DNA of 64,000 bases from a virus. Its lineage: Duplodnaviria; Heunggongvirae; Uroviricota; Caudoviricetes. Under the pieces are notes generated by a model, which saw only the letters and a list, made by a program, of their open reading frames with translations, was not told where the DNA came from and ran no database searches. A program made the translations under genes and the position numbers. The DNA is taken from the IMG/VR virus record IMGVR_UViG_2681813318_000003, one strand, 5' to 3'. Shown here piece after piece: positions 2,774 to 56,775 of the stretch (positions are counted from its first letter, which is position 1; each line of letters begins with the position of its first letter).

Positions 2774-2881
2774 AATTACACCATTAAATAATTTGTTTTC
2801 TTATTGGTGTAATTATCGCAAACTTGAAAAGGCATAAAAGCTGCATTCATAGGCGTTACAGCAGATTTAAGGCGTAAAAAT

Positions 2882-2920: not shown

Positions 2921-3484
2921 TTATGCGTATTGCGTTTTGTGCGGTTGCTTATTCAAGTCGTGGCGATGCGTAAGCTCCCGCATCATGTCTTCAAGCCGAC
3001 TTTTCGTATCATCAAGCTGGTCGGCCATTGCTCCCAAAAGCTGGCGAACGGCCATTGGATCGTCACTGTTTAGTGATGGCATTTTATATCCCGCTTTAGA
3101 AGACATAAGATTGATTGCAGACATCAACATCGTTAGAGAAGACTTAAGTCCGGCAATTTCACGATCTTTGCTGGCAATAATCGTCTCACTATTGTTACCG
3201 TCATGGGTTCCTTGAGTCTCGCTCACCATATCCAAAGTCGCCTGCAACTTATTAGCGCGCTCTTTTTCAGCAAGATAATGAACACCGAAATGGTGTGCCA
3301 AAGCTACAACCTGAGTTGGCTCTTCAAAGGTGGAATTAAAATTAAGTACTGTAAACAGTCTCTCAAATATAGAAACGTCTTCTGTTCCCCGAACAATGCC
3401 TAACATTTTGACAAGTTCATTAGCATCCATTTCTTCGAATAGGGCGTTTTGTTCATCAGCTATTGCTTTGCATTTCTCGCACAT
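2921..3484 (-). CDS. hypothetical protein
   Basis: 187-aa ORF; conserved leader and AAACAAGTTGTTT palindrome upstream. Confidence 0.55.
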   Translation of the reverse strand: MCEKCKAIADEQNALFEEMDANELVKMLGIVRGTEDVSIFERLFTVLNFNSTFEEPTQVVALAHHFGVHYLAEKERANKLQATLDMVSETQGTHDGNNSETIIASKDREIAGLKSSLTMLMSAINLMSSKAGYKMPSLNSDDPMAVRQLLGAMADQLDDTKSRLEDMMRELTHRHDLNKQPHKTQYA

Positions 3485-3781
3485 GTGTTTTCCTTAATGC
3501 TTAAACAAGTTGTTTTCTAATTGGATTTATTGTGATGTGGCATAAAAGGGGAGCAAGCTAAACGTAAAGGTGCAAACTCTCTATTTCGGTCAACGAAACA
3601 CAAGGGCCATTTGGCCCTTGTCATTAACACGTTGCTTTACGGACTAGCGGATAAGCGAAGTAGATCGCCAGGCCAATGAGGACGCCATCAGAAATGACAG
3701 ACATCATCTTTCCCGTAAAATCCACCAACACCGCCATCACCAGAAGAGCAATGACGGTCACAAGCCGGAATCTCTCAAGCA

Positions 3782-4207
3782 TTAGAGATAAGCATCCAGT
3801 GACAACTGAAGCGCCTGGGCTATCTTTTTCAGCGCCTGCTCTTCTTGTTCTCCAATACCGTCTTGGTCGGCAATATCAAGGCACAGACACAGAACATCGA
3901 CCGCCTCTGGAGTACCCGCAATATCAGACAGCTCACGAATAGCCTGTGCATTAGCAGAACGAGGGGACGCTTCGTAACGAGCACGGATATTGGCGCTCAT
4001 TTGGGCAATTTCACCAGCAAACGGAGAAAACGCAGGCAGAGCTGCAATTGTCTTCTCAAGAATGGCAATTTCTTTTGCGTCACATGTGCCGTCGGCATAG
4101 GAGATCATGTACGCGCCCCACACGGTGGCCTCAACCGCATCACGGTTCTCCATTTTTTTGACTTCAATAACAGCTTTACGAGTTTTCTTTTTGAAGAAAC
4201 CTAACAT
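3782..4207 (-). CDS. TerB-like domain protein
   Basis: 141 aa; residue pattern around a conserved DG resembles the tellurite-resistance TerB fold, recalled from memory. Confidence 0.45.
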   Translation of the reverse strand: MLGFFKKKTRKAVIEVKKMENRDAVEATVWGAYMISYADGTCDAKEIAILEKTIAALPAFSPFAGEIAQMSANIRARYEASPRSANAQAIRELSDIAGTPEAVDVLCLCLDIADQDGIGEQEEQALKKIAQALQLSLDAYL

Positions 4208-4300
4208 GTGTTTTCCTTTTATTATTTGTCAGAACAAGTTGTTTTCTAGTTTCATAAATTGCTTGCGCAAAGATGGTCAATGCATATGCACTAACAACCG

Positions 4301-12334: not shown

Positions 12335-13204
12335 TTATTTTTTGATCATTCCGTACATTGCTGAGGCTTTAGCTTGCTCAACAAAGGAGGATAAATCGAC
12401 ATCACTATAGGTTGGAGACTTCAGAATCTTTCCATCGGAAATTCGAAAACCGATCATCTTATCGGTGCCATCAGCATGGCGAAATCCCAGGTCAGAAGAG
12501 TCGTATTTGCAGTTGGCCACAGCATGGCGACGCTCTTCGGCATCTGCAGGCCATAATTTTGTCATGTTGGACCGATGAATTTCGCCAACCAGCTCGACGA
12601 CATTGATACCGAGGAAATCAGCCAGTCGATAGGTCATCATGCACGCCACATAGATTTTGTTCATTACACGGCGCAGTTCCTGAATCAGCTCAGAATCCTT
12701 AACAGTCTTGTTCTCAAGTTTATCTGCCAGCTCTTCGAGCATACATGACGCCTCACGAGCTTCCTGAAATGGCATTGCCATATCATCGAAAACAGTGTTA
12801 CCAGGCACAAAAATTGTCTGCATAAAGCGATCAATGCTCTGTTCCTGCGTGTAATAGGTCATGCCGGTAGAAATACCACCTTTGATGGCGACCATCGTAC
12901 CAACACCAACGTATAAAAAGTCGGCCATTGCATCCAGCAGTTGCTCAATATCCCCATTCATTGCGGCTGGAATACCTTCCACTACAGCTTCTTCATGAAT
13001 CAGGCTTGCACGGAGACGAAGCAGCTCTGGTGTCGGCATAACGCGTCTCGGATGCTGGAAGAGTTCATGAAACTGATCGACCATCTTGTAAATACTTTCA
13101 GTAGCTACACCATGACCTTCATGCAACTCATATGGTTCTGGCTTAAATCCAATGAGTCGATCGGTGGCAAGTTTCAGGTGGTCAGTCAGTTTGGTAAAGT
13201 TCAT
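12335..13204 (-). CDS. hypothetical protein, possibly an all-alpha NTP pyrophosphohydrolase (MazG/HisE-like)
   Basis: Two regions with EE..E and E...D acidic patterns on predicted helices; weak. Confidence 0.4.
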   Translation of the reverse strand: MNFTKLTDHLKLATDRLIGFKPEPYELHEGHGVATESIYKMVDQFHELFQHPRRVMPTPELLRLRASLIHEEAVVEGIPAAMNGDIEQLLDAMADFLYVGVGTMVAIKGGISTGMTYYTQEQSIDRFMQTIFVPGNTVFDDMAMPFQEAREASCMLEELADKLENKTVKDSELIQELRRVMNKIYVACMMTYRLADFLGINVVELVGEIHRSNMTKLWPADAEERRHAVANCKYDSSDLGFRHADGTDKMIGFRISDGKILKSPTYSDVDLSSFVEQAKASAMYGMIKK

Positions 13205-13281
13205 GCTAGTTTTGTTCCTTCTTAATTCTTGTGATCCATTGTGGCCCAGCGTTGCCAGGCCACATAATGCTTTGTATCGGT

Positions 13282-14424
13282 TTACAGGTCTGCAAACTGG
13301 CTTAGAGAAGCCTTATCCACGGTAGAATCGATCTGACCTACCAGATATGTGCTTTGCTCTGCCTCTTGTGGTGCAATTTGCAGTGTGTCGGTTAACAACC
13401 ACTTGTTCATCCAGACCAGCGGATCTGTGGTAACTTCTGGAAATAAAGCCTTCAGGCCAAGACGATTCATAGCCAGATTGGTGCGGTATTTTACATAGGT
13501 CTTCAGAATATCCGCGTTTAAACCAATCATCGAACCGTCTTTGAAGAGATAGTCTGCCCAGTTCATTTCTTGTTCGGCGACTGATTTCATGGTGTCGTAA
13601 ATGACGTTTTCTTCATCAGCAGCAATCTCTTTCCACAATAAACCTTCGCGACCGGTACGCATGAAGCGGATCATGCGTTCAGTTCCTTCGCAATGCAGAG
13701 CTTCATCACGGGCAATAAAGCGCATAATTTTGGTGTTGCCCTCAAGCAACTTCCGTTCGCCAAAGGCAAACGTACATGCAAAACTTACATAGAAACGGAT
13801 CGCCTCAAGCGCATTAATGGACACCAACGTGCGGAAAAGCTGACGGTGCAAAGGGTATGGCTCCCAGCCATATTCATTTACGTACAGACGTTCAAACTCT
13901 TTCTCACCTAACGACTGGCGCTCGCAGGTCATCCCATAAAGCCTGTCATATTCAGCAGAGATACTGATCGCTCGGTTGATGATTTCTTCATCCGTAACAA
14001 TACCGTTAAAAACAATGCTCGGATCGTCCACCATGCCACGAATAATGTGGGTGTAGCTGCGGCTATGGATAGTCTCAGAGAAAGACCATGTTTCAACCCA
14101 CGTTTCCAGTTCAGGAATAGAGATAAGCGGCAGCAGCGTTGCATTTGGGCTACGTCCCTGAACTGAATCGAGTAACGTTTGATAACGGAGATTGCTCAGA
14201 AAAATGTGACGTTCGTGGTCCCGCAGCTTCGTGTTGAAGTCGATACGATCGCTCGAAATATCAACTTCTTCCGGCCGCCAGAAGAAAGACAATTGACGTT
14301 CAATCAACTTTTCAAAATCACGGTATTTTTGCTGATCGTAACGTGCCACGTTGACAGATTGTCCGAGGAACATAGGCTCTTTGGTTGCATCATTAGCACC
14401 CAAACGGAACGTTGAATATGACAT
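13282..14424 (-). CDS. nrdB: ribonucleotide reductase class Ia beta subunit
   Basis: Long stretches match enterobacterial NrdB as I recall it (for example [37 protein letters not shown]). Confidence 0.95.
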
Positions 14425-14528
14425 GTGTTTTCCTTTTGCTTATTGATGTGTTTAAACAAGTTGTTATCTTATTTGTTTAAACAAGGTTTACAAATCAAAG
14501 AGAAGGTGGGGATATCCCCCACCATATG

Positions 14529-16844
14529 TCAGATTTTGCAGGCTCCGTCGCACTCATCTTCTGGCTCGACGGCTACAGCTTGCGTCAGTGGATTCTGCGG
14601 TTCGTCGTCATCACGCTTTCCTGCCCCATCTCTGGTGTTGTGGTAGTAAAGCGTTTTAACTCCCATCTTGTAGGCGAGAAGCAAATCTGACAGTAGCGTC
14701 ATCATTGGGACTTTATCGCCTTCAAAGCGAGAAGGGTCATAGTTGGTATTGGCTGAAATAGCCTGGTCAAAGAACTTCTGGATGATCGCCACCTTTGTCA
14801 GATAGCCGCGGTTGTCCGGCATATCCCACAGGTATTCATACTGTTCCTTCAGTTTTTCAAACTCAGGCACGACCATCTTAACGATGCCGTCCTTAGAAGA
14901 TTTCACCGACACCGGGCCACGAGGCGGTTCGATGCCGTTGGTGGAATTAGTGATCTGGCTGGAAGTCTCGCATGGCATTTGTGCCGTCAGTGTGGAGTTG
15001 CGAAGGCCGTATTTTGCAATACGTTCACGCAGTTCTTCCCACGGCATCTTTAACTCAAAGTTGGTTTCGCCACTTTCGTCTAATGAAGAACGGTAATGGT
15101 CGATCGGCAACTGACCAATTGCGTACTTGGTCTGCTCAAACCAGTCACACTCACCTTTTGCTTCAGCAAGTCGGCAGCTGGCATCAAGAAGGTAATACTG
15201 GATAGCTTCGAACGTTTCATGCACCAGTTTATTGCCAGCGGTATCAGAATAACGAACGCCATTCTTTGCCAGGTAATAAGCAAAGTTGGTTACACCAATT
15301 CCCAAGCTACGACGAGCTTTGGCAGGCACTGCGGCTGCCTCCATCGGATAGTCTTGATAATCCAGTAACGAATCCAGTGCAGCAACGGCATAGAACGCCA
15401 CCTCTTTAAGAGACTCCAGTGAACGGATGGCTCCGAGGTTAAAAGCGGATAAAGTGCATAGCGCGATCTCACCGTTCGGGTCGTCGGTAAATGCCAGTGG
15501 ACGAGTGGGTAGAGTGATCTCCATGCACAGGTTTGACTGGCGGACAGGTGCAAGAGCAGGAATGAAAGCGCCATGCTCATTAATATGATCGACGTTCGCA
15601 ATATAAATTCGGCCCGTGGACGCTCGTTCCTGCATCAGAGATGAGAACAGCTCAATGGCAGACACTGACTTCTTGCGAATTGAATCATCGGCTTCGTATT
15701 TATGGTACAGCTTTTCAAACAGATCCTGGTCTGTGAAGAAGGCTTCGTACATATCAGGCACATCATGCGGGCTGAACAGAGTGATGTTCTCGCTTCTGAC
15801 GAGTCGACGGTACATTAGACGGTTACTCATGACGCCGTAATCAAGATGGCGAACGCGGTTTTCATCAATACCACGGTTATTTTTCACCACCAGCAGACTT
15901 TCAACTTCAAGATGCCAGATCGGGTAAAACGCTGTTGCTGCGCCACCACGAACACCACCTTGCGAACAAGATTTAACAGCCGTCTGGAAATGCTTCAGGA
16001 ATGGAATAACTCCGGTATGGGTGGCTTCACCATTGCGGATCTCGCTGCCCAGCGCACGGATACGGCCAAAACCAATACCAATTCCAGCACGACGTGAAAC
16101 GTAGTCGATAATTGCGGCTGAAGCTGCACTAATCCCTTTCAGACTATCGCCAGACTCAATCAGCACACAACTGGAGAACTGACGGGTTGGAGTACGGACG
16201 CCGGCCATGATTGGTGTGGGCAGAGACAGTTTGAACGTACTTGTAACGTCATAGAAACCTTTGACCATCTCCATACGTGTTTTACCAGCGCAGTCGTCTT
16301 CCCAATTCTGGAACAGACACATGCCTACCAGCATATAGATATGTTGCGGCCCCTCATGAATCTCACCAGTAACACGGTTTTGAACGAGGTATTTGCTTTG
16401 CAACTGCACCGTAGCTGCATAGCCAAAAAGATCGTCACGTTTCGGCTTAATGTAATTGCCGAGTTCTTCGATCTCTTCAAACGAATAATGTGTCAGCAAA
16501 TCCTTGTCATAAACGCCCTTGTTAACGTTCTTGACAATGTGTTGGTAGAAGTTCGGATAGTCGTAACGACCGAAGGCATCTTTGCGGATTTTAAAAATGT
16601 TCAGGCGGGCAGCCACCTGTGAGTAATTTGGTGCTTCTGGTGAGATCAAATCAGCGGCAGATTTAACCAAAGCCTCATGCAACTGGCTGGTGGTAATCCC
16701 ATCAAAAATGCTGGCCGCAGCTCCCATTGCTACAGCGGATGCGCTTACACCACGAATGCCTTCTACGCCATACATTACGACGCGGTTGTATTTTTCTTCG
16801 GATAACGGCTCTGTTTGGCCGTTACGTTTTACGATGCTTATCAT
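14529..16844 (-). CDS. nrdA: ribonucleotide reductase class Ia alpha subunit
   Basis: 771 aa, class Ia NrdA-like throughout; directly upstream of nrdB. Confidence 0.95.
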   Translation of the reverse strand: MISIVKRNGQTEPLSEEKYNRVVMYGVEGIRGVSASAVAMGAAASIFDGITTSQLHEALVKSAADLISPEAPNYSQVAARLNIFKIRKDAFGRYDYPNFYQHIVKNVNKGVYDKDLLTHYSFEEIEELGNYIKPKRDDLFGYAATVQLQSKYLVQNRVTGEIHEGPQHIYMLVGMCLFQNWEDDCAGKTRMEMVKGFYDVTSTFKLSLPTPIMAGVRTPTRQFSSCVLIESGDSLKGISAASAAIIDYVSRRAGIGIGFGRIRALGSEIRNGEATHTGVIPFLKHFQTAVKSCSQGGVRGGAATAFYPIWHLEVESLLVVKNNRGIDENRVRHLDYGVMSNRLMYRRLVRSENITLFSPHDVPDMYEAFFTDQDLFEKLYHKYEADDSIRKKSVSAIELFSSLMQERASTGRIYIANVDHINEHGAFIPALAPVRQSNLCMEITLPTRPLAFTDDPNGEIALCTLSAFNLGAIRSLESLKEVAFYAVAALDSLLDYQDYPMEAAAVPAKARRSLGIGVTNFAYYLAKNGVRYSDTAGNKLVHETFEAIQYYLLDASCRLAEAKGECDWFEQTKYAIGQLPIDHYRSSLDESGETNFELKMPWEELRERIAKYGLRNSTLTAQMPCETSSQITNSTNGIEPPRGPVSVKSSKDGIVKMVVPEFEKLKEQYEYLWDMPDNRGYLTKVAIIQKFFDQAISANTNYDPSRFEGDKVPMMTLLSDLLLAYKMGVKTLYYHNTRDGAGKRDDDEPQNPLTQAVAVEPEDECDGACKI

Positions 16845-16861
16845 GTATCACCAAATAAAGA

Positions 16862-16883
16862 GGGCCACTAAATATAGTGGCCC
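16862..16883 (-). terminator. hairpin GGGCCACTA-AATA-TAGTGGCCC between the RuvC-like gene and nrdA
   Basis: 9-bp stem; minus-strand downstream sequence is TCTTTATTTGG. Confidence 0.45.
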
Positions 16884-16917
16884 ATGTTAATAGATAAGCA
16901 CTTACCTATCAACGAGA

Positions 16918-17487
16918 TCAAATGAGAGACTTGAGAACATCGCGCACCTGGCGAAACTGATCTGTTTGCATACCGGTATGGATGGCAGCCACCGCATCAG
17001 CCAAATGTTCGTTTTTGTTCACGAGAACATCCTGTCCAGATTGCTTACGACGCAGCCACGGTGCTTTAGGGTGTTTTTTCGTAGCCCACTGGATAATCTC
17101 TTCTTTCGATGTAGTAAGTTTATTGCCGACAAAATGCTTGATTTCGTTTGGAGTAACCTGGATCAATGGCTTATCCACACACGCAAGTACACCGATACAA
17201 ATACCGTAAGACGTCTGCGAACGAGAGTTTTGGCTCCCAACCGGTAGCTCACAAAAAACCATATTTGCCTTATCAATGATTGGCTTCGCAACACGCCATA
17301 TTTCACTGGCTCGGCGCAGATCGTCACTGTTCACACGAACGGTCTTTTTGTTACTCCCCGCTTTAGTCTCAACAAGAGTAAGGCCGTGAATCTCAAGTTC
17401 GTCCGTCTCAAGGTCTAAAGTGCCCACAGCAAGCCCAAAGTTGCTCATTGAGGGATCAACACCAACTACGCTGATTTTTTTACTCAT
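16918..17487 (-). CDS. RuvC-like Holliday junction resolvase
   Basis: VVGVDPS N-terminal motif and EHLADAVAAIHTG C-terminal motif. Confidence 0.6.
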   Translation of the reverse strand: MSKKISVVGVDPSMSNFGLAVGTLDLETDELEIHGLTLVETKAGSNKKTVRVNSDDLRRASEIWRVAKPIIDKANMVFCELPVGSQNSRSQTSYGICIGVLACVDKPLIQVTPNEIKHFVGNKLTTSKEEIIQWATKKHPKAPWLRRKQSGQDVLVNKNEHLADAVAAIHTGMQTDQFRQVRDVLKSLI

Positions 17488-17496
17488 ATAGTCTCC

Positions 17497-18240
17497 TTAC
17501 CATGTTCCCCATATAGGGTTTTCCAATAATCTCGCCTCCAACGAATTGGCTACTATTGCCGTTTGCAACGTTGGTTGGGGATAGTTTGCAAAGTCTGAAT
17601 ACTCATTTTCCTGCGTGACACGTTTATCTGCGGCATGTTTAACACCACTTGCTATGAAATGACGCATGATGCCCAACAGCCTCCGACTGTCTGCACTATC
17701 GTTTGCTAAAACATGAGGGAGCTGAAGTTCGATTTCTACCATTTCTCCATACTTACCAACAAACTGTAGTTTGTCCGCACTGTACTTTTTATCCCTCCTT
17801 TGGATAAGGAAACCAGTAAAAGCATCACCTGGCGATGCCAAACTATCCGCCCGCTTATTGGCAAGTCGAATAAGGTTCGTGAAAGCCATACAGAGATGCG
17901 CATCCATTGCCCCAAAGAACCCTTCGCTATTAATGTTAAGATCTTCAGTTTCATGGGTTGCGATAAACCCAGGTCCGACGTTGGGAAGATATCCCCCCTC
18001 AACAAAAGGATTAATCAAGATCGGCGCAATACATCCAGACGGCAGTGATTCCAAACTTTGCATCAATGGTGTCTCGGATATTAGACCAAGCAACGGGGCG
18101 AATTGTGCTTTGTCAATATTATTGCTGCCCCACAGAATACGTGGAGCCGCACTATTGGAAGTATGCCCATTGATCAGTTTTATCGACTGCATCACTGCAA
18201 ACACCTGCAAAAACTGCGAGCGGCTTAATTTAAACGACAT
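17497..18240 (-). CDS. hypothetical protein
   Basis: 247-aa ORF; its start overlaps the upstream stop by 11 nt. Confidence 0.5.
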   Translation of the reverse strand: MSFKLSRSQFLQVFAVMQSIKLINGHTSNSAAPRILWGSNNIDKAQFAPLLGLISETPLMQSLESLPSGCIAPILINPFVEGGYLPNVGPGFIATHETEDLNINSEGFFGAMDAHLCMAFTNLIRLANKRADSLASPGDAFTGFLIQRRDKKYSADKLQFVGKYGEMVEIELQLPHVLANDSADSRRLLGIMRHFIASGVKHAADKRVTQENEYSDFANYPQPTLQTAIVANSLEARLLENPIWGTW

Positions 18241-20146
18241 AGCTGCGCCCCTCTTTAACTTCCAGCGTAATAGTTTCGCGGAACCATGACTTCATCTCTT
18301 TATGGGAGATAATCAGCACAGTGCCCCGTTCGCGAGCTTTGGACTCCAGAATACCCATGAGGCGTTCAAGACCGGCTGTATCGAGTGCATCGTCAATTTC
18401 GTCGCCGATAAACAAATCGATGTTTTTACTCGCCCGGTTACTAACCAGATCCTGCAATGCCAAAGAACACGCAATGCGAACCTTCCGCTTCTCACCACCA
18501 GAGAGGGTCTGGAACGACTTACTTGAACCTTTCTTCTGCACACTAATGTTGAATTTGTCGCGATACTCACCTTTTTTAGTGACATCCATCGTCGACCACT
18601 CAGCAGTAATATTCCCGTCAGACAACGTATTGAGATACTCGGCTGTGCGTGTATTCAGGAAAGGCGTAACAGACGTCAAAATATGAGAACGCACCCCGGC
18701 AGGAGAGTAGACCTGACGAGCTTTTTCCAATAGCAACGTTTGTTCCTGAATAGCCTTCAACTCATCTTTTAAGGACTTGAAGGTAGACTTACTGGATACC
18801 AGGTTATCTTCGTGTCTGGCGATAAGAGCAATAAACGGATTAATCTCTTTTGATATACGATCGACCTCAGTACGAGCACGAGTAACAAGAGACTCAATAG
18901 CAACAACCTCCTTCTCACGATGACGCAAAGATGAGAGTTGTTTAGTAAGTTCTTCAATCCGGGCAATGATAGCCGTTACATCAGGTGTCGTTTTAACAAG
19001 GGCAGACTCAATGCTTAACGCCTTCTCAAGATTCGTTTTGTGTTTAGCCATTGCCTCTGCAAGTGTCTTCGCCTGACCAATTTCCTGACGTGCTTGTTCA
19101 ATGAAATTCTCCTTCACCGTTGATAGATCTTTTTCGCAGTAGGCTTTGCCACAAGTAGGGCATGGTGATCCTACTTTAGTACCAACCTCTTCTGCTTTGG
19201 TCTTAAAATTGCGCGCGCGGCTCATTGCATCAGCCTGACTATTTTCTGTAGCTTTGATGCTTGCCCGAATATCAGTTATCGCTCCACGCACTTTGAGCAA
19301 CTTGGCGTCATGTTCTTCTTTTGAGGCTAACTTTTTGCGCTCACTTTCGATTGCCTTCTCGGTATCACAGATCTGTTCGGGAAGAGTGCGGATCTCAAGT
19401 TCAACTTCTGTTAACTCAACTTCGGCACTTGCCAGCCCAGCCAGGGCATCGTCATAACGTTTAGAACGCTCTTGTTCCCATGATTCAGAGGAGGCTTTCG
19501 CGGACTCAATTTCTGACTGTGTTGCCTCAATGGTCGAGATTGTCGACTCCAATTTGGTTTTAACCACGTCCATACGTGCGGCAGCTGCGTTAGCTCGTTC
19601 ACGAGCAATAGCGTAGGCGCGTGTCAGTCTGTCAACGCCAGCGGCTTCTTCTACGATGGTTTTGAGGTTTTTGTCGGACATTCCAGGTAGATCTGGCATA
19701 GCTTCTTGGCTTGCATAGATGGAAGCCATGAAAACCTCTTTAGATGCACCGATCAGACGTTCGACGAACTCTTGCGTCAGCGCATCTTTGCCTTTCGTCA
19801 TATCGCCGTCTTCACCACGAACGATAAGCCGATTTTTGAACTCTTTGTGTTTACGGTGACGAATGATCGCATATCTCTTGCCTTCATCCTCGATGGTTAC
19901 TGCAACACGACAGTTCTTTTCATGGTCGGTAGACAACACATCGTCCCCCTTCACACCATGAGCTGTTTCACCATAAAGACACCACATCAGGCTATTCATT
20001 AGAGTTGACTTTCCAGAGCCATTACTTGATGCGGAACTATCATCACTATTAACGCCCTGAATTAACACTAAACCACGCTGATCTAACTCGACCTCCGCGC
20101 TGGCGATAGCCATAAAATTCTCAACCTGGAGTTTTAAAAACTTCAT
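18230..20146 (-). CDS. sbcC: SbcC/Rad50-like recombination ATPase
   Basis: Walker A GSGKST, long coiled-coil middle with a CPTCGK zinc hook, signature LSGGEKRKV and D-loop GDEIDDALD. Confidence 0.85.
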   Translation of the reverse strand: MKFLKLQVENFMAIASAEVELDQRGLVLIQGVNSDDSSASSNGSGKSTLMNSLMWCLYGETAHGVKGDDVLSTDHEKNCRVAVTIEDEGKRYAIIRHRKHKEFKNRLIVRGEDGDMTKGKDALTQEFVERLIGASKEVFMASIYASQEAMPDLPGMSDKNLKTIVEEAAGVDRLTRAYAIARERANAAAARMDVVKTKLESTISTIEATQSEIESAKASSESWEQERSKRYDDALAGLASAEVELTEVELEIRTLPEQICDTEKAIESERKKLASKEEHDAKLLKVRGAITDIRASIKATENSQADAMSRARNFKTKAEEVGTKVGSPCPTCGKAYCEKDLSTVKENFIEQARQEIGQAKTLAEAMAKHKTNLEKALSIESALVKTTPDVTAIIARIEELTKQLSSLRHREKEVVAIESLVTRARTEVDRISKEINPFIALIARHEDNLVSSKSTFKSLKDELKAIQEQTLLLEKARQVYSPAGVRSHILTSVTPFLNTRTAEYLNTLSDGNITAEWSTMDVTKKGEYRDKFNISVQKKGSSKSFQTLSGGEKRKVRIACSLALQDLVSNRASKNIDLFIGDEIDDALDTAGLERLMGILESKARERGTVLIISHKEMKSWFRETITLEVKEGRSYVV

Positions 20147-20375: not shown

Positions 20376-21461
20376 TCACACAGCCTCCGAACTCTCCGCT
20401 TCGGTGAGGATTTCCTGACACAAAATATCCAACTTGCTCAGATCAAATCCGCCGTCAGTATCGTGGACAATCTTGCAATAAGCAGATACCGACTCTCCCA
20501 GGCTATCGATTTTGCTGGTTTCCGTTGTGCTTGCTGTCCCTTCCATCATTGATGACTTACGGATGAAGTTGCACACAACACCTTTTGCACCCATTGTTTT
20601 GAGGATGTTCTGGTACTTAATGCCTTCTTCGTCGTTCTCGATTACGGCGCGGAAACGCACGTAGTTGCCGCGAATTTGGTCATCAGCAACATAATCTTCC
20701 AGGTTAATGAATTTAGGCGCACTGGTTTCGTAGTGACTGAAACTGCCGTCCGGGTTTACGATCATGTAACCAGCCAGAGATCCAACATCTCCCCAATTTT
20801 GATGGGTCAGTGCACCGACACTGATAACTCCAGGAATGACCTCTTTGTGGTTGTGGTAATGCCCACTAAGCACGAGACGAAAGCCGATATCCTTTAACTC
20901 CTGCGCATCGATACCGACGTCAGGCATTGTTGGAATGGCTTTGTTAATGGATGTATGGATAACAACATCATGATTATCACCTTCTACGCTCTTACGTAAT
21001 GCTTTCAGATCGCTGATAAGCTCTGCATGATTGTTACGCCAGCTAATCAGGTGGACAGTCACATCACCAATTTTTATTGAGTGTGGGCGCTTGCCACATA
21101 CGATTACCACGCCGATAGAACTCAGCGATGCTGCTGCGTTGGCGCTATATACTGAATCGTTGGTTTCAAGATCGTGATTACCGGCCAGCATTACTACTGT
21201 CAGATCAAGCTCGTTGATAATCCACTTGTACGTTTCAGTTACGTAATGCAAAACAGAAGGGGACACAGTTCCTCGGACGTGAAATGTATCACCGGCAACC
21301 AACATGTACTTACAACCGGCCTTCTTCATGGCGATGGCTGCTTCTTTCGTTGCTTCCAACTGTATTTCAAGTCTGGAGTTAAGCCCCTCAGCGTTCGTCG
21401 TGGAGAACGCATCCCATTTGTGGTAGTGGCAGTCAGAAATGACGCCGTATGGCAAAGTCAT
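20376..21461 (-). CDS. sbcD: SbcD/Mre11-like nuclease (calcineurin-like phosphoesterase)
   Basis: DCHYH, GDTFH, GNHD and GHYH motifs; start moved to ATG 21459-21461 with the conserved leader. Confidence 0.85.
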   Translation of the reverse strand: MTLPYGVISDCHYHKWDAFSTTNAEGLNSRLEIQLEATKEAAIAMKKAGCKYMLVAGDTFHVRGTVSPSVLHYVTETYKWIINELDLTVVMLAGNHDLETNDSVYSANAAASLSSIGVVIVCGKRPHSIKIGDVTVHLISWRNNHAELISDLKALRKSVEGDNHDVVIHTSINKAIPTMPDVGIDAQELKDIGFRLVLSGHYHNHKEVIPGVISVGALTHQNWGDVGSLAGYMIVNPDGSFSHYETSAPKFINLEDYVADDQIRGNYVRFRAVIENDEEGIKYQNILKTMGAKGVVCNFIRKSSMMEGTASTTETSKIDSLGESVSAYCKIVHDTDGGFDLSKLDILCQEILTEAESSEAV

Positions 21462-21782
21462 GTGTTTTTCCTTTGTGGTTATTTGATACAAATCTTAAGC
21501 TTGCTCGAGAGGTGAGCAACCAAGACAGCACGGCACAGAAGAACATCAACAGGCATAGTATTACAAAATAAATAGGTAAGTGAATACCTACCAAAATTGT
21601 TGAATGGATTGCTTACAAGGCGGCTAGAGTTTCATTGAAGTGCTTAGATGTATATGGTAGGCAAAAGTCTCATCGTTACATATGAATGAACTATCTCATG
21701 GGTCATGTATCATTTGATATTTTTATTATCAACAATTACTGTATAAGAGGAATTTTCCAAATTGAAAAAGGATTGATTATCA

Positions 21783-22841: not shown

Positions 22842-22919
22842 ATGTCATTTTTCTGTGATTGTTAGCCGAGGCAACGATAACCCACCAGGTGCGCCGAAGG
22901 TAGTAAATGCCTGTTTTAA

Positions 22920-23000
22920 TTATTCACATATCCACAGGATAGATCCTAATAAAGAGATCCATAGATAGATCCTTGTATAGATCAAATAAGATCCCCGATC
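22920..23000. promoter_or_regulatory. origin-like region: two DnaA-box-like 9-mers and six clustered GATC sites
   Basis: TTATTCACA (22920-22928) and ATATCCACA (22928-22936); GATC at 22942, 22956, 22968, 22980, 22990 and 22997. Confidence 0.7.
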
Positions 23001-23041
23001 GCTGTAAGCCGCGCCACGACTGGTCTGAAGCCATGTTCATG

Positions 23042-23142
23042 TATGCTACCAGCGGTAATTGATAGTCTGTCAACGGTTCGCCGTATGCTGCCAACTGTTT
23101 TTGGTATGCTGCCAGCGGCAAATCAAGTATGCTGTCAGCGGT
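23042..23142. repeat. five iterons (TATGCTRYCAGCGGT-like) upstream of repA
   Basis: Copies start at 23042, 23064, 23084, 23105 and 23128, spaced 20-23 bp. Confidence 0.8.
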
Positions 23143-23162
23143 TGAATGACAAAGGTGTCCAC

Positions 23163-24257
23163 ATGTCCACAAAAAATAAAAAAGGTAAAAATAACAAAGA
23201 AGTAGAAGATAATCTCGACAACTTTGAAGAAGGTTCCCTTGAATTGTACACAGGGGAACTTGTCCCTAATAGCAACAATACAGTCCAACCAATTGCGTTG
23301 ATGCGGCTGGGGTTGTTCGTGCCCACGCTCAAGGGGACAAAATACAGCAAGCGTAACAAGCCAAATGAGATCGATGCTTCAAAGGAGCTTGTTCAGCTCG
23401 AAGTAGCCCGTTCTGAAGGTTATTCCGATATCAAGATAACCGGTCCTCGTCTCGACATGGATCATGATTTCAAAACGTGGGTGGGCGTTGTGCGTTCGCT
23501 GGCAGAATACGGCGAACCTAACGGTCGTGTCGAGTTAAGCATCACGAAATTTGCGAAGTTTTGTGGCTATCCATCGTCACAGATCCGCAAAACACTCCGC
23601 GACCGGCTTACAAACAGTCTTTTGAAGATCATGCGTACAACTCTGTCTTTTCAGAGAACGTATGAAGAAAAGAACGTCGACGGCTCTAACAAGATCTCGC
23701 TTCTGATGGTGCACCTCATCAATAGCGTGGACTACAACGAGCAGAAAGATACGGTGGTGTTCTATGCAGAACCGAAGCTGGCCGAACTATATCGCTTTGA
23801 CCATAAGGTTCTTTTGCAGTTAAAGGTTATCAATAAGCTACCACGCAAAGAAACAGCACAGGCTCTGTACACCTTCATCGAAAGTCTTCCAACCAAGCCT
23901 GCGCCGGTATCGCTTGCTCGATTACGTGCGCGACTCAATTTGAGTAGCAGGAATGTCAGCTCGCAGAATCAGACTATACGTAACGGCTTAAAAGCTCTCC
24001 AAGATTTGGGCTATCTCGAATACAGCGAGATTAAGCGAGGGCGGTCGATCTATATCCAGATTCACAGCCGCAATCCAAAACTCAAAGTCGCACCGCCAAA
24101 ACCTGAAGACATCGAACCCAAAAAACCAGATGAGAAAGCTGGGGAAATTGATGCCAAACAGAACATTATCAACAAGATAACCGAACTTTCGCAGAATTTG
24201 ACGCCTGAAAATATCAAGATGATTGAGATCCTTTCCAATAGTCTCAAACTGCTTTGA
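23163..24257 (+). CDS. repA: iteron-type plasmid replication initiator
   Basis: Flanked on both sides by iterons; start moved to ATG 23163 (AAAGGTG upstream) because the first 40 codons of the track ORF are iteron DNA. Confidence 0.75.
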   Translation: MSTKNKKGKNNKEVEDNLDNFEEGSLELYTGELVPNSNNTVQPIALMRLGLFVPTLKGTKYSKRNKPNEIDASKELVQLEVARSEGYSDIKITGPRLDMDHDFKTWVGVVRSLAEYGEPNGRVELSITKFAKFCGYPSSQIRKTLRDRLTNSLLKIMRTTLSFQRTYEEKNVDGSNKISLLMVHLINSVDYNEQKDTVVFYAEPKLAELYRFDHKVLLQLKVINKLPRKETAQALYTFIESLPTKPAPVSLARLRARLNLSSRNVSSQNQTIRNGLKALQDLGYLEYSEIKRGRSIYIQIHSRNPKLKVAPPKPEDIEPKKPDEKAGEIDAKQNIINKITELSQNLTPENIKMIEILSNSLKLL

Positions 24258-24374
24258 TATGCTGTCAGCGGTGAAATGTATGCTATCAGCGGCTATTTTT
24301 CTGAAAAGTATGCTGTGAACGGTTAAAGATATGCTACCAGCGGTATAGTGAGATAAACGTATGCTGTGAGCGGT
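24258..24374. repeat. five iterons immediately downstream of the repA stop
   Basis: TATGCT[GA][TC][CG]A[GA]CGG[TC] at 24258, 24279, 24309, 24330 and 24360. Confidence 0.85.
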
Positions 24375-25599: not shown

Positions 25600-25875
25600 T
25601 CACTCAAAAGTGCTGATGCTTAAAATACGCTCAAGATGTGCGGCATCTTCATCACTGATTTGTTGAGTCTCTTCTACGTACCAACAGTTGCCGTTATGCC
25701 AACAAACACCATCATCATCAACCATCACTGAATCAGCGTCATGACCTGTATATTCAACGAGAATGTGCTGGATCAGCGCGTCAGTTTCTTCGTCGTTAAG
25801 GCCATCGGCTTTGACCATAAAAAGCGGAAACACGTCATAGACAGTGCTGGTAACGATTCGAACTAAAACTCTCAT
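25600..25875 (-). CDS. hypothetical protein
   Basis: 91-aa ORF with the conserved leader. Confidence 0.5.
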   Translation of the reverse strand: MRVLVRIVTSTVYDVFPLFMVKADGLNDEETDALIQHILVEYTGHDADSVMVDDDGVCWHNGNCWYVEETQQISDEDAAHLERILSISTFE

Positions 25876-25930
25876 GTGTTTTTCCTTTTGTGGTTAGTGT
25901 TTACTTATTTTGTTAGTTATGAATAGGCGA

Positions 25931-26356
25931 TCAATCTTCTTGTTTAGGGAAAAACTGTTCAATAACTCTGTCAACGGCTGTGTCTATATGGAGTAGATGC
26001 CACACAACCATATCTTTGCTTCCCATGCCTTGTGTGAATATCACGTCATACTTACGCCATGCGCAGTGGAACCAATATGCTGAGTCATCAATTGGTAAAT
26101 CCTCTCCCGCCTCTTTGAAGTATTTCAGCAGCATTGCCTGCTCTGCCGTTGGCGTTGGACCTATTTCCTGAGCGTACATACGGATGAATCGCTGCCAGTC
26201 TGTCTCGTCGGGGGTTGGATCTGGTGGGGTCATTTCTGCGATAGCGTTTCGTAGCTGATGCGCCCAATCAGGTTCAGGAAAGCCTTTTGCTACTTCATCA
26301 TCAATAACATCCAGAGCCACGTTTGCGGCATCGTAGAGTTTCTTAATAGCTGTCAT
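25931..26356 (-). CDS. hypothetical protein
   Basis: 141-aa ORF; AAACAAATTGTTT palindrome 17-29 nt upstream. Confidence 0.5.
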   Translation of the reverse strand: MTAIKKLYDAANVALDVIDDEVAKGFPEPDWAHQLRNAIAEMTPPDPTPDETDWQRFIRMYAQEIGPTPTAEQAMLLKYFKEAGEDLPIDDSAYWFHCAWRKYDVIFTQGMGSKDMVVWHLLHIDTAVDRVIEQFFPKQED

Positions 26357-26412
26357 GTTTTCTTATCCTTTTAAACAAATTGTTTTCTTAATAAGATAAT
26401 TGCGATAAAAAA

Positions 26413-27281: not shown

Positions 27282-27482
27282 TTATTTCCCCTTTGCTTTG
27301 ATTAATGAGTTGATAAACTTACGACCAGCAATAAGACCGATTACAGGAGCACCAAAACCAACGATAACTCCAAACATGACGGCTAAATCACTCTTGGTAG
27401 AAATCAGCGACGGAACCAGTAAACCGTAGATGAGAGCCACTGAAAGGCCTGTGGCTACTGCCAATAGATAGATTTTGATCAT
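27282..27482 (-). CDS. small membrane protein
   Basis: 66 aa with two TM segments; its stop overlaps the start of the SPFH gene. Confidence 0.55.
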   Translation of the reverse strand: MIKIYLLAVATGLSVALIYGLLVPSLISTKSDLAVMFGVIVGFGAPVIGLIAGRKFINSLIKAKGK

Positions 27483-27511
27483 GTGTTTTCCTATGTGGTT
27501 GTTATGCGAAA

Positions 27512-29921: not shown

Positions 29922-30950
29922 TTACAGAGAGTCCAGCTCTCTCAGTAGGTCATCCAGACCTTCATCTTCCGTCGCAGATGCGGTTGCTACAGATGTCGCT
30001 GCGACTGCTTCAGACTCTTTGACTGATACGGCAACGGCAGCGGAACTTGCCTCTGGTTTAAATTCAGTTTCAACGGCACGGAGGATTTCTTCATCAACCA
30101 GACTGGTTGGTTCAGAAGCCGGTGTGTGCGCGGTTGCTACAGCCGTCGCTCCTTCTGTATGACCAGTGACAGAGCCAAATCCAGGTAGTGCCGCAGCCGA
30201 TGTTTTCGCGGTTGAGGAAATTGCTGGTGCAGATGCTGCGGCAGTTGGTGCAGCGATGCCAATCAGACGACCCATAGTGCGAACTGTCGACAGAAGACGA
30301 GTTTCATCAGCCTGATTTGCGTATGCGATCAGATCATGCTGAGTGTTCCAGAATTTATCTTCGATATCGCCTTTGTAGACTTTACGCTTAGGCGAGACGT
30401 CATATTTGGTATCGCGACCAGAGCCAGTACGTTTAATCAGGAATGCGTAGCCTTCCTCTTTGCTCAGTGGATTGCCGATATCATCAGCGATGTCTTCGGT
30501 GATTGCTTTGCAGATATCATCGAATACAGTAGACGGCAGCTCGATTAACTGGCATTTCTCAGCATCTGCGAAATCCTCACGAGCAGAAAGAATGCCGTTG
30601 ACCAGGTAGCGAGGAGTGGCACGCATTTGACCGATGCGTTCTTCCATTGCTTTGTTACCCTTGTGACGAGCGCGACCTTCCATCACCATTTCGCATAGCT
30701 GACAAGCGCGACCGTGAGTATGTTGCTCACAAATATAAGCGTTGGTTGCTTCTTTACCTTCCTCGTTCTGATACTTAACGTAGTGCATACCGAAAGTCTG
30801 GAAGAACTTACCGTTTGGGTCGTCTTTATTCGGGAAGATGCGGATATAGTTGACGCCGTCTTTTAAGCGAGTCAGATCAACGTTGTTACCACGTTTGGCG
30901 GCAATGTCTTCACGAGTTTTGTTAAGCAAATCAAGTAATGTCTTAGACAT
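29922..30950 (-). CDS. putative single-stranded DNA-binding protein
   Basis: Cys/His cluster (CEQHTHGRACQLC), Ala/Ser/Thr-rich linker and acidic tail DEGLDDLLRELDSL; position in the replication module. Confidence 0.5.
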   Translation of the reverse strand: MSKTLLDLLNKTREDIAAKRGNNVDLTRLKDGVNYIRIFPNKDDPNGKFFQTFGMHYVKYQNEEGKEATNAYICEQHTHGRACQLCEMVMEGRARHKGNKAMEERIGQMRATPRYLVNGILSAREDFADAEKCQLIELPSTVFDDICKAITEDIADDIGNPLSKEEGYAFLIKRTGSGRDTKYDVSPKRKVYKGDIEDKFWNTQHDLIAYANQADETRLLSTVRTMGRLIGIAAPTAAASAPAISSTAKTSAAALPGFGSVTGHTEGATAVATAHTPASEPTSLVDEEILRAVETEFKPEASSAAVAVSVKESEAVAATSVATASATEDEGLDDLLRELDSL

Positions 30951-31067
30951 GTGTTTCTCCTTGTTGTGATTTGGCCGATGGCGCTATGCGCGTTGGGCTT
31001 TCGTTCATTCGTGGCTCTTTCGAGCTGTTAAATGATAGATCAGTACTTACTTATTATCTATCAAAAA

Positions 31068-35145: not shown

Positions 35146-35330
35146 GTGTTTTTACCTTTCTGGTTTTTTTTGATTTTGTCATTTGGGAAGCCTACGAACT
35201 TCCCATGCATCGAAATCGCAACTTCTTTTGCTGATTGGTGACAATCAGGCTTGTCTGGACACACCAGACAAGCCTTACCAGTTTCAGAAGCAGCGATAAG
35301 AGAGCCGAAACATCCTTTACGCACGATCAA
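35142..35330 (-). CDS. small Cys-rich protein
   Basis: 62 aa with C..C and CP..PDC; translationally coupled between the CobS-like gene and dnaE. Confidence 0.35.
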   Translation of the reverse strand: MIVRKGCFGSLIAASETGKACLVCPDKPDCHQSAKEVAISMHGKFVGFPNDKIKKNQKGKNT

Positions 35331-38766: not shown

Positions 38767-38864
38767 GGCTAATCCTTTGTTATGAAAACAAATTATTTAC
38801 TAGTGTGTTTAATGTAGCACTGCGCGAACAGGGAACTAAGCCATTCGCGCAGGGAGAAGAGGGG

Positions 38865-39283: not shown

Positions 39284-39297
39284 GGTAAGCACTTACC
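39284..39297. promoter_or_regulatory. perfect palindrome GGTAAGCACTTACC (candidate operator)
   Basis: 32 nt upstream of the HTH regulator ATG; same family recurs at more than 12 gene junctions. Confidence 0.5.
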
Positions 39298-52008: not shown

Positions 52009-52089
52009 GTGTTTTTCTTTTGTGGTTTGGCAAAAGAAAAGTTGTTTCACCAATGAATCAAGCGTGGAGGTGTTCTCCACGCTTATTTT

Positions 52090-53430: not shown

Positions 53431-53473
53431 GTGCTTTCCTTTGTTTTTTAAACAAATTGTTTTCTAGTATTAG

Positions 53474-56650: not shown

Positions 56651-56775
56651 TGGAGAGTTCCCTTTGCGTATATAATTATCGTCTGAAACAACTTGTTTTC
56701 TTATATGTGATATAGCCTAAATGCCTACGGCTGCGGTGTAAAGGTTTAATGATAGGTACATAGGTGGGCTTAATA

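Follow-up and report, generated by a model that had tools for sequence, protein, structure and literature searches.

The window, which is the whole 64,000-nucleotide stretch of viral DNA analysed here, contains a close series of short elements between nrdA and nrdB (14422–14523). An intrinsic terminator hairpin, GGTGGGGGATATCCCCACC then TTCTCTTT, follows nrdA at 14505–14523 on the minus strand, just beyond the end coordinate given in the earlier note. According to the terminator scan, its stem has 8 pairs, 6 of them G-C; SSU5 and pJN2-26 retain this stem amid variable surroundings. A candidate sigma-70 promoter of nrdB (14466–14493, minus strand) comprises TTGTAA (14488–14493), a 16-nt spacer, and TAAGAT (14466–14471), and may drive this gene. 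The Type A element ATAAGATAACAACTTGTTTAAA (14451–14472, minus strand, matrix score 31.5) includes the 13-bp palindrome TAACAACTTGTTT, read from the sequence at 14454–14466, and is the best-conserved intergenic stretch of the four-genome alignment. The nrdB ORF (13282–14424) is started by the shared initiation region AAGGAAAACACATG (14422–14435, minus strand), and GGGAAACACATG at this start is kept in SSU5 and pJN2-26. The earlier note had described two tandem palindromes before nrdB, but the second one is TTGTTTAAACAA (14473–14484, minus strand, read directly), which has the half-sites in opposite order and no spacer, and which sits inside the spacer of the candidate promoter. The sequence CCTTGTTTAAAC at this locus is conserved in Cyrano and SSU5, and partly in pJN2-26. 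A true second AAACAA-N-TTGTTT copy is present at the nrdB locus of the Klebsiella phage pJN2-26.

The window is 99.3% identical to the E. coli phage Cyrano/pLF82, whose genes include lambda-like tail genes as well as RepA and ParA. On this sequence evidence it is an SSU5-like siphovirus phage-plasmid and not a T4-like phage, contrary to the T4-like setting first proposed. Of the suggested likeness to T4 cassettes, the composite promoter/terminator motif remains, and the T4-type myovirus genome does not. The relatives compared are Salmonella phage SSU5, Klebsiella pJN2-26, the more distant pCAV1015-111, and Moellerella and Acinetobacter relatives; the genomes sharing the sequence elements differ by about 24–32%. 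The same helicase is found in about 750 plasmid records from Escherichia, Klebsiella, Enterobacter, and Salmonella. The 52-kb plasmid CP057431 is a deleted SSU5-like element and thus offers no independent context for the par module. An Rfam scan of the whole window yields three tRNAs only. Resistance genes can travel on SSU5-like phage-plasmids (PMC9600943), and the literature searched contains no account of how these elements stay silent or turn lytic.

The Type A element has the form A[C/T]AAGAAAACAAnTTGTTTAA and is present in 8 copies in the window, all intergenic and all in gene orientation. The palindrome motif AAACAANTTGTTT, with at most one mismatch, has 8 matches against 0.49 expected, and none of 100 shuffles reaches 8. 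A position matrix detects 13 strong Type A sites in Cyrano, and about one in shuffles at a far lower threshold. All six palindromes listed in the earlier note are present, and two more were found at 2786 and 38786. Scanning IMG/VR with the exact element gave many chance matches in A/T-rich contigs and was uninformative.

All of the copies in the window lie on the minus strand. The element before the DUF4942 gene (2783–2804) has a clear extended -10, TGCGATAAT, at 2812–2820; its right half is lost in Cyrano and intact in SSU5, pJN2-26, and pCAV1015-111. The copy before ORF 2921–3484 (3500–3521) has orthologous sites in relatives, and the copy before the TciA-like gene (4229–4250), with TTGACC-18-TATGAA ahead of it, has orthologues in pJN2-26 and pCAV1015-111. 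Further copies are found after a terminator and before ORF 25931–26356 (26370–26391), before a CobT-like gene as the variant AAATAATTTGTTT (38783–38804), and before a DnaB-like helicase (53447–53468), where the initiation region is represented by the variant AAAGGAAAGCACATG at 53428–53439. The helicase site is also present in pCAV1015-111. The copy before ParA in the partition operon (56683–56704) lacks the shared initiation region; this segment is near-identical in Cyrano, SSU5, and pJN2-26, and the sequence farther upstream is unrelated. In SSU5, pJN2-26, and pCAV1015-111 the element is kept at orthologous sites while the flanking intergenic sequence diverges, and it is absent from the Moellerella and Acinetobacter relatives. 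Conservation across genomes that are this far diverged makes co-regulation by one factor, as the earlier note had proposed, the natural inference, with candidates only for the factor itself.

The register of the element was examined by aligning 39 Type A sites from three genomes, which contain orthologous triplets and therefore represent an effective sample of about 15. The two palindrome half-sites are equally conserved (35–39 of 39 sites per position) and the centre is free, a pattern expected of a dimer on double-stranded DNA. Variants in one half-site are never compensated in the other. An invariant AAG lies 5′ of the palindrome, so that the motif is longer than 13 bp and asymmetric. This AAG has no symmetric partner and is not accounted for by a simple symmetric dimer. 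In all 39 sites the base 8 nt ahead of the 22-mer is a T, and an A/T-rich, -10-like hexamer ends at this T with no indels between hexamer and palindrome. The earlier note mentions neither the AAG nor this hexamer. The TG of an extended -10 (TGnGATAAT) is present in about half of the 39 sites, no -35 is conserved, and the hexamer is weak at several sites (nrdB, ParA, DnaB). Given its spacing from the -10-like hexamer, Type A should cover about +3 to +20 of the predicted transcript. The ribosome-binding site follows at 12–36 nt, depending on the locus, and the distance to the -10 is fixed. Three loci have additional Type A copies with their centres near -38, and at two of these loci the spacing to a +12 copy is 51 bp. 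These copies lie upstream of the predicted start and so cannot act in the 5′ leader of the downstream unit.

Most Type A units are preceded by intrinsic terminators, and a terminator T-tract is seen at -26 to -20 across the aligned sites. The terminator scan gives hairpins also at 3600–3621 and 2882–2897. In the first 20 kb, 26 terminator-like sites were counted against 18.5 ± 4.5 expected, which is no clear enrichment. The terminase leader has a different layout, in which Type A (two copies in Cyrano and SSU5, one in pJN2-26) is followed by a hairpin and T-tract before the start codon. Such an element-then-terminator leader would equally suit an antitermination scheme. On the opposite strand, Type A with a terminator is also found at 85815 in Cyrano, 85599 in SSU5, 21770 in pJN2-26, and 69489 in pCAV1015-111.

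The initiation region AAGGAAAACACATG is found at 12 real gene starts in the window with up to 2 mismatches; a further match at 47636 heads just a 19-codon ORF. The near-identical region reported earlier is thus real, and the count of at least 13 genes is reduced to 12. The initiation motif CATGTGTTTTCC, with at most one mismatch, has 9 matches against 0.48 expected, and 0 of 100 shuffles reach 9. Its core AACACATG has 11 minus-strand copies and no plus-strand copy in the window. One minus-strand core without Type A lies at 1024–1031, and further minus-strand copies lie at 3482–3489, 4205–4212, 21459–21466, 25873–25880, 27480–27487, 30948–30955, 35143–35150, and 52006–52013. These copies all start ORFs, of 66–1172 aa, and most are kept at orthologous starts in Cyrano, SSU5, and pJN2-26.

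The initiation region does not form one cassette with the palindrome; the two are independent of each other. In seven genes the initiation region is present and the palindrome is missing. The palindrome is followed by the initiation region at 3503, 4232, 14454, and 53450, partially at 26373, and not at 56686 (ParA), so this claimed order applies to only some of the listed sites. A module that combines terminator, promoter, palindrome, and ribosome-binding region does recur between genes, with the qualification that its elements are separable. A second palindrome, GGTAAGTnCTTACC, marks another promoter class, and the shared initiation region follows that class too. AAGGAAAACACATG is a separate module under its own selection, serving genes behind both promoter classes. 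It is conserved beyond the needs of a Shine-Dalgarno sequence, and may simply be an optimised ribosome-binding region.

The second palindrome is linked to a CI-like repressor, CYRAN_45, whose own divergent promoter region carries GGTAAGTGCTTACC and not Type A. In pCAV1015-111, the second palindrome becomes TAAGTA-NN-TACTTA together with a 48%-identical CI-like repressor, and Type A is unchanged. CYRAN_45 is thus unlikely to bind Type A, as it tracks the second palindrome and both change in pCAV1015-111. SSU5 lacks the integrase-repressor island and the CYRAN_45 gene and yet keeps Type A, which excludes only CYRAN_45 as the binder.

The most likely reading is that about a dozen transcription units share one module and are switched together by one regulator. 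We assign a probability of roughly 55% to the palindrome being a DNA operator for a repressor encoded by the phage-plasmid. The module would consist of the terminator of the upstream gene, a sigma-70-type promoter, Type A, and the ribosome-binding site with the start codon. The promoter would rely on its -10, often extended, and transcription is predicted to start at an A about 7–8 nt downstream of it. A dimeric phage-plasmid regulator would bind the palindrome, centred near +12, and block RNA polymerase at some 13–17 promoters at once. At a few promoters, binding could gain strength from a second copy centred near -38, at a distance of about 51 bp. The replication, nucleotide-metabolism, accessory, and terminase units would in this way be kept silent in the plasmid-prophage state. 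We infer the transcription starts, the binding by a protein, repression over activation, and the identity of the binder. A generic trait of repressor operators is present, namely a dyad-symmetric site at the predicted start that is repeated at many promoters.

In RNA-seq of the LF82 lysogen, terS, cobT, and CYRAN_58 are at the background floor (PMC9928086, S1 Table). dnaB and nrdB are slightly above the floor, and among the Type A units only the par operon is clearly expressed (PMC9928086). The Type A units that are silent in the lysogen have good -10 elements. Silence behind Type A fits repression and is not specific to it.

As the binder we would first suspect the ParG-like protein from the partition operon. 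It is encoded just after ParA (55623–55982, minus strand), it is expressed in the lysogen, and its own operon carries Type A. Two of its segments, the KSRTxS strand and the RSDV.RAA helix, show no change as far out as Moellerella. The monomer model (pLDDT 67) has a disordered N-terminus, an extended stretch at 42–47, and helices at 48–59 and 70–82, a predicted topology that may fit a ribbon-helix-helix protein, with low confidence. A comparison of the protein with Pfam gave no ribbon-helix-helix match. ParG- and omega-type partition proteins usually bind arrays of short repeats and not a single 13-bp palindrome; upstream of ParA only one palindrome is present, and the vicinity of the par operon contains no tandem repeat array.

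The second guess is the FljA-family protein CYRAN_114, which is encoded outside the window. The candidates were ranked by their expression, their conservation, and the position of their genes. The small winged-helix-like proteins CYRAN_123 and CYRAN_37 are unlikely lysogenic repressors, as both are at background in lysogens. CYRAN_123 additionally has a 61%-identical homologue in the Moellerella relative, which is without Type A. To our knowledge, none of the host factors IHF, PhoP, LexA, NrdR, and Fur or of the LacI family fits the element.

A broader proposal, which would be new for this family, is control in two layers. In it, a ParG-like or FljA-family global silencer would act via Type A at about 15 promoters or leaders, and AAGGAAAACACATG would be a translational operator of the replication genes. 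This is put forward tentatively, as a speculative possibility. If true, plasmid maintenance, and possibly post-transcriptional control of the flagellar-phase-variation type, would be wired directly to the lytic programme.

The alternative that survives best, although unlikely, is that Type A acts as RNA in the mRNA 5′ leader. CYRAN_114 would bind the leader, the initiation region, or both, and either block translation or destabilise the message, in the manner of FljA at the Salmonella fliC leader, and the AAGGAAAACACATG genes would form a translational regulon comparable to the targets of T4 RegA. CYRAN_114 matches the Pfam family Flag1_repress (PF03614, E=1e-80) and has a weak Hfq-like match. 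It is present in 12 of 12 SSU5-like phage records, including the Klebsiella elements; Klebsiella is non-flagellate, which makes a function within the phage plausible. Lysogens express CYRAN_114 at a moderate level. Type A occupies a place after the predicted start and ahead of the ribosome-binding site, and the fliC operator has the same position. Type A and the initiation region have CAAGTTGT and AAGGAAAA-N4-ATG in common with the fliC leader of two Salmonella genomes, but the likeness is an 8-nt core noticed post hoc, with about half of 22 positions matching and several invariant ones missed. GAAAACA is common to Type A and the initiation region, both are missing from the same distant relatives, and the conservation of the initiation region beyond Shine-Dalgarno requirements also favours an RNA-level role.

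The perfect two-fold symmetry with a free centre is in contrast a DNA signature, and no usable RNA hairpin forms. The uncompensated half-site variants, the copies upstream of the predicted start, and a ribosome-binding-site distance that varies against a fixed -10 distance argue in the same direction. CYRAN_114 is only 39% identical in pCAV1015-111 (75–87% among near-identical genomes), whereas the motif is invariant. An RNA hairpin or riboswitch-like element is rejected, because the hairpin has only 0 to -0.7 kcal/mol and shuffled sequences are as structured as the leaders. In the comparison with Rfam covariance models at the gathering threshold, Type A matches no family.

It is quite unlikely that Type A is a promoter-proximal loading or recognition site, at which a phage antiterminator or lytic activator engages RNA polymerase and reads through the intergenic terminators. 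The fixed -10 register would suit such a site, as would the position of most units behind intrinsic terminators and the element-then-terminator order in the terminase leader and opposite-strand copies, and the asymmetric AAG extension suggests directionality. However, the known factors of the Q type attach ahead of the promoter or inside it and depend on a -10-like pause element, no evident example of which is present here, and N-type systems use RNA hairpins, none of which forms. One-way loading needs no palindrome, the first 20 kb show no clear excess of terminator-like sites, and no Q, N, or other antiterminator homologue is found among the proteins tested.

It is very unlikely that the repeats persist mainly as recombination substrates that shuffle gene modules, irrespective of any protein that binds them, as a mobile regulatory cassette of the T4 PeSL type. 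Among the small accessory genes, neighbouring units have about 40 bp in common (T-tract, TGCGATAAT, ACACCA, and the element). When the window is compared with Cyrano, homology starts again 4 bp ahead of a Type B site, 53 bp ahead of the ParA Type A site, and 28 bp ahead of the DUF4942 one; for Cyrano and SSU5, boundaries lie 0–60 bp from Type A at 29200, 43039, 58608, 82877, 96239, and 97899. The comparison of breakpoints suggested in the earlier note thus finds several homology blocks that resume within 60 bp of a cassette, but in numbers that are roughly what gene starts give: three or four of about 9 junctions for window and Cyrano, and about 6 of 29 for Cyrano and SSU5, against 3–5 expected by a rough count from gene starts. 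The strictly conserved part is short and has dyad symmetry, which recombination does not need. Conservation at the core genes nrdB, dnaB, parA, and terS points to function over mobility, and this reading is in any case compatible with the operator explanation. Finally, the element is not a -35 hexamer (TAGAAA-16-AATAAT, 4248–4221), as other copies have no -10 at that spacing.

SSU5-like phage-plasmids are clinically common and understudied, and the present analysis gives a regulatory map of them and not a new principle. Three handles are gained: an operator-like element that is conserved, precisely defined, and assigned to listed target units; another class of palindrome, covarying with the CI-like repressor; and a uniform initiation region on the replication genes. 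They can be used for operator mutants, as pull-down baits, and for predicting which genes respond together.

Several known systems resemble parts of this arrangement. PeSLs are composite promoter-terminator motifs (PMC2839356, PMC4122927). Like the T4 PeSLs, the present module has a stem-loop terminator and an early-type promoter between small genes, and some gene-content differences start at the cassette. In contrast, the phage type is another one, and the core is a dyad downstream of the -10 that is kept at core genes of distant relatives. The initiation region is similar to the T4 RegA targets, where early replication and nucleotide-metabolism genes share a start-codon sequence, but it is far more uniform, and no RegA homologue was noticed. 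[quoted passage not shown] The resemblance to FljA/fliC lies in a clear FljA-family protein encoded by the phage-plasmid and in what would be a dyad-symmetric target between start and ribosome-binding site. The fliC dyad ATCAA-N7-TTGAT can form a stem-loop, whereas Type A cannot, and there is one target in that system and there would be many in this one.

In the phage-plasmid P1, the C1 repressor silences lytic and accessory units through one short operator scattered at many promoters. Both P1 and the present element are plasmid prophages with one dispersed short sequence, an operator in P1 and a probable operator here. The P1 operator is an asymmetric 17-mer, whereas a 13-bp palindrome with a 5′ AAG is found here, and the CI-like repressor tracks the other palindrome. 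The P1 C1 operator, which we take to be ATTGCTCTAATAAATTT, is unrelated to AAACAAnTTGTTT in this window. KorA/KorB of RK2 and omega of pSM19035 are partition-operon regulators that act through short palindromic or repeated operators at many promoters of one replicon, including their own operon. KorB differs in that it is a helix-turn-helix protein of the ParB family and recognises another 13-bp site, and omega in that it binds arrays of 7-bp repeats, compared with the single palindromes here that lie mostly downstream of the predicted start. The overall pattern of KorA/KorB and omega is nevertheless the one proposed here for the ParG-like candidate.

Upstream of nrdB on the minus strand, the nrdA stop and the terminator hairpin GGTGGGGGATATCCCCACC with TTCTCTTT (14505-14523) are followed by the palindrome TTGTTTAAACAA (14473-14484), the Type A element ATAAGATAACAACTTGTTTAAA (14451-14472), and the nrdB initiation region AAGGAAAACACATG (14422-14435). 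Type A is an intergenic 22-mer around the palindrome AAACAA-N-TTGTTT, and the initiation region is the stretch shared around start codons. The first palindrome, taken by the earlier note as a second tandem copy, has its half-sites in the opposite order, and two true Type A copies, 28 bp apart, are present at nrdB in pJN2-26. With at most one mismatch, CATGTGTTTTCC and AAACAANTTGTTT have nine and eight matches in the window (0.48 and 0.49 expected). AAACACATG and AGAAAACAA are its two most frequent strand-specific 9-mers, and all 11 copies of AACACATG are on the minus strand. The initiation region, claimed for at least 13 genes, is recurrent, but 12 copies (up to two mismatches) lie at real gene starts. 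The idea of a single cassette holds for only four genes, those with both elements; another seven show the initiation region without the palindrome, and ParA shows the palindrome without the initiation region.

At bases 13000-17000 the window matches Escherichia phage Cyrano (pLF82, OV696614) with 99.3% identity; for Salmonella phage SSU5 and Klebsiella phage pJN2-26 the figure is about 77%. The counterpart of the whole window is Cyrano 23539-85707, in reverse complement and with indels. The minus strand has a long series of replication, recombination, and nucleotide-metabolism genes. Gp32-, UvsY-, and UvsW-like genes are present, but the annotation is that of a siphovirus phage-plasmid with RepA and ParA, not of the T4-like phage first proposed. 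Five copies of ACCGCTGACAGCATAC lie in the region of about 22900-24300, including a tandem repeat at 23067-23118; related copies occur in pCAV1015-111, and these repeats are probably RepA iterons.

All eight Type A copies in the window are intergenic, in the same orientation, and have an asymmetric 5′ extension, with the consensus A[C/T]AAGAAAACAAnTTGTTTAA. Scanning all of Cyrano with a position matrix derived from these copies gives 13 sites with scores over 20, among them five in an accessory small-gene region outside the window and two in tandem before the small terminase gene; shuffled genomes give about one match at a threshold of 12. An alignment of 39 sites from Cyrano, SSU5, and pJN2-26 counts orthologues per genome, giving an effective n of about 15. 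In it the half-sites are equally conserved (35-39/39 per position), the central base is free, and AAG immediately precedes the palindrome in 36-38 sites. All 39 sites have a T at exactly 8 nt before the 22-mer; it is the last base of an A/T-rich hexamer, typically GATAAT, which a C-rich ACACCA separates from Type A. About half of the sites have the extended -10 TG, none of the aligned positions forms a conserved -35, and the upstream terminator's G+C arm and T-tract lie at -28 to -20. The usual spacing rule predicts a transcript start at the A in position -1 or 0 and hence a dyad centre near +12. Between Type A and the start codon there are 12 to 36 nt, depending on the site. At three loci an upstream copy lies about 38 bp before the predicted start, overlapping the T-tract of the upstream terminator. 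The -38 and +12 copies are 51 bp apart at two loci (Cyrano 93111/93159 and pJN2-26 28533/28584), and the upstream and downstream copies are 48 bp apart at SSU5 88316/88364.

Two further arrangements lie outside the window. The leader of the terminase (late) operon (Cyrano 1-135, SSU5 1-134, pJN2-26 38545-38691) has Type A just before the small terminase gene, as a tandem pair spaced by 25 bp in Cyrano and SSU5 and as a single copy in pJN2-26. A conserved hairpin AGAGCGCAnGGAnGCGCTCT with a T-tract comes directly after Type A, and then the ribosome-binding site, an attenuator-like layout. Opposite in strand to the genes, a conserved run (Cyrano 85815, SSU5 85599, pJN2-26 21770, pCAV1015-111 69489) comprises, in this order, a promoter-like TTATTTTCAC, ATAAGAAAAGG, Type A, and immediately a terminator hairpin. 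This run could give a transcript of about 55 nt made of Type A and the terminator; read on the gene strand, its palindrome lies near -38 of the next promoter.

Type A is found at orthologous places in SSU5 (ParA, DnaB, CobT, nrdB, DUF4942, and accessory genes) and also in pJN2-26, and in four-genome alignments it is the longest conserved intergenic block upstream of nrdB, dnaB, and cobT. Type A is also kept in pCAV1015-111 from K. oxytoca, a more distant relative whose helicase is 68% identical, at ParA, DnaB, TciA, DUF4942, terS, and other sites; nine exact copies of GAAAACACATG are kept there too. SSU5-like relatives from Moellerella (Morganellaceae) and Acinetobacter have neither Type A nor the initiation region, which confines both to the Enterobacteriaceae branch of this family. 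In 50 kb of Moellerella sequence, the highest-scoring Type A-like match that is intergenic and gene-oriented lies upstream of ParA, with the left half alone intact. Acinetobacter p5759_1 has a sigma-70-family sigma factor gene (17690-18355) between the CobS-like gene and DNA polymerase III alpha, where enterobacterial members have no gene. Upstream of DUF4942, Type A is intact in the window (2783-2804) and its right half is decayed in Cyrano (82890-82925; TTAAACAAATCACTTCTTAA), where the promoter TGAAATAAT is the same and two extra genes are inserted just upstream; the Cyrano site is a natural operator variant.

Recognition of Type A could occur in RNA or in DNA. As RNA, the palindrome folds at best into a 5-bp A/U stem with a 3-nt loop (0 to -0.7 kcal/mol), full leaders fold no better than shuffles, and Rfam finds only three tRNAs in the window and no match at Type A. 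Half-site variants in the window, SSU5, and pJN2-26 (left C to T, right G to A, and others) are never compensated. The weak fold, these variants, the exact symmetry, the fixed -10 register, and the upstream copies favour the reading of Type A as a predicted double-stranded DNA site for a dimer.

The initiation region, (A)AGGAAAACACATG, often extended to AACCACAAAAGGAAAAACACATG, is found at primase, DNA polymerase III alpha, the gp32-like SSB, SbcD, NrdB, a TciA-like gene, and several small genes. In Cyrano, SSU5, pJN2-26, and pCAV, orthologous starts keep ACACATG though the A-run drifts in length, so the spacer is under selection beyond Shine-Dalgarno needs. It may be either an optimised, unstructured ribosome-loading region or a translational operator. 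At primase (52006-52013) the following ATG opens a 393-codon ORF in the window and Cyrano; the same ATG in SSU5 (35837) and pJN2-26 (77226) opens only 22-23 codons, ending at the annotated primase start, which suggests a coupled leader peptide or a frameshift difference. A further copy, AAAAGAAACACATG (47636-47643), which Cyrano and SSU5 conserve, lies inside the end of the gene preceding DNA ligase; the ORF that it opens is in another frame and has only 19 codons.

Initiation-region genes of the window that lack Type A often have a second palindrome, Type B, upstream (e.g. 1072, 21575, 27518). Type B, (TT)GATA-GGTAAGTACTTACC-TATC(AT), has about 17 copies in Cyrano and a similar number in SSU5 and pJN2-26, in early and structural gene regions. 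It forms the spacer between a -35-like TTGATA and a -10-like TATCAT (e.g. 16912-16884). A perfect copy, (TT)GATA-GGTAAGTnCTTACC-TATC(AT), lies at 39284-39297, and others at 1072, 5126, 7341, 16893, 21575, 27518, 31038, 45608, 54230, and 59691. The dominant repeat of the Acinetobacter relative, TATTAGTAAGCGCTTACTATAAT, is a related palindrome abutting TATAAT.

In RNA-seq of an LF82 lysogen from overnight LB culture (normalised counts, background about 10), the genes that immediately follow Type A promoters show counts at the floor or close to it: terS 7, dnaB 21, cobT 8, CYRAN_58 6, and nrdB 13 (PMC9928086, S1 Table). Many of these promoters have good extended -10 elements. The par operon is the exception, with 50 for ParA and 89 for the next gene (PMC9928086, S1 Table). 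This has the look of a repressed regulon with an autoregulated member, and activator-dependent promoters would look the same. By far the most highly expressed Cyrano gene is CYRAN_43, at about 700 times background (PMC9928086, S1 Table). It encodes a 184-aa protein adjoining the integrase (Cyrano 40268-40822, minus strand, outside the window), with no Pfam match and a 35%-identical homologue in pCAV1015-111.

One candidate binder is the ParG-like protein encoded after ParA (55623-55982, minus strand), for which the Cyrano annotation is "RelE/ParE". The lysogen expresses it, and its own operon has Type A. Plasmid records that carry it number 797 and are roughly those that carry the helicase. 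Its overall identity is down to 53% in pCAV and 28% in Moellerella, and the IKSRTxS.EDE stretch and RSDV.RAA helix are invariant through both. Pfam gives no match; in a single-sequence AlphaFold model (pLDDT 67) the N-terminus is disordered, residues 42-47 are extended, and residues 48-59 and 70-82 form helices, which fits a ribbon-helix-helix protein but is not proof of one.

CYRAN_114 is a clear FljA-family protein (Pfam PF03614, "repressor of phase-1 flagellin", E=1e-80). All SSU5-like phage records have it, even the ones from Klebsiella, which is non-flagellate. The full-length gene (Cyrano 100780-101301, minus strand) lies outside the window and is unusually variable, at 75-87% identity among otherwise near-identical genomes. 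Its expression in lysogens is moderate (PMC9928086, S1 Table), and FljA acts on the fliC leader, according to work cited in PMC2652032. The Salmonella fliC leader has CAAGTTGT and AAGGAAAA-N4-ATG in common with Type A and the initiation region. Because this core is short and was noticed after the fact, CYRAN_114 as a predicted binder is a lead and not a test.

The CI-like CYRAN_45 pairs with the second palindrome and is an unlikely binder of Type A: its divergent promoter region carries one perfect copy of Type B, GGTAAGTGCTTACC, and not Type A, and in pCAV1015-111 TAAGTA-NN-TACTTA replaces GGTAAGTGCTTACC and the repressor is 48% identical while Type A is unchanged. The small winged-helix-like CYRAN_123 and CYRAN_37 are also unlikely: both are silent in the lysogen (PMC9928086, S1 Table), and CYRAN_123 has a 61%-identical homologue in a Moellerella plasmid with no Type A sites within the 50 kb examined.

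The proposed link to gene shuffling is borne out only in that some boundaries lie close to the elements. Where the window is compared with Cyrano, the points at which homology restarts precede a Type B site by 4 bp, the Type A of ParA by 53 bp, and that of DUF4942 by 28 bp. In the comparison of Cyrano with SSU5, six block boundaries fall at a distance of 0-60 bp from a Type A site. Since boundaries are expected at gene starts anyway and Type A heads about one-tenth of genes, they do not support shuffling; they would fit PeSL-type exchange through cassettes (PMC2839356, PMC4122927) but are not evidence for it. No description of promoters, operators, or regulators of SSU5-like elements was found in the literature searched. 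The Type A sites are rated as a well-defined but uncharacterised putative operator regulon of a clinically common phage-plasmid family. Type A is not a sequence member of the P1 C1 dispersed operators or of the plasmid KorA/KorB and omega regulons, but its arrangement works like theirs.
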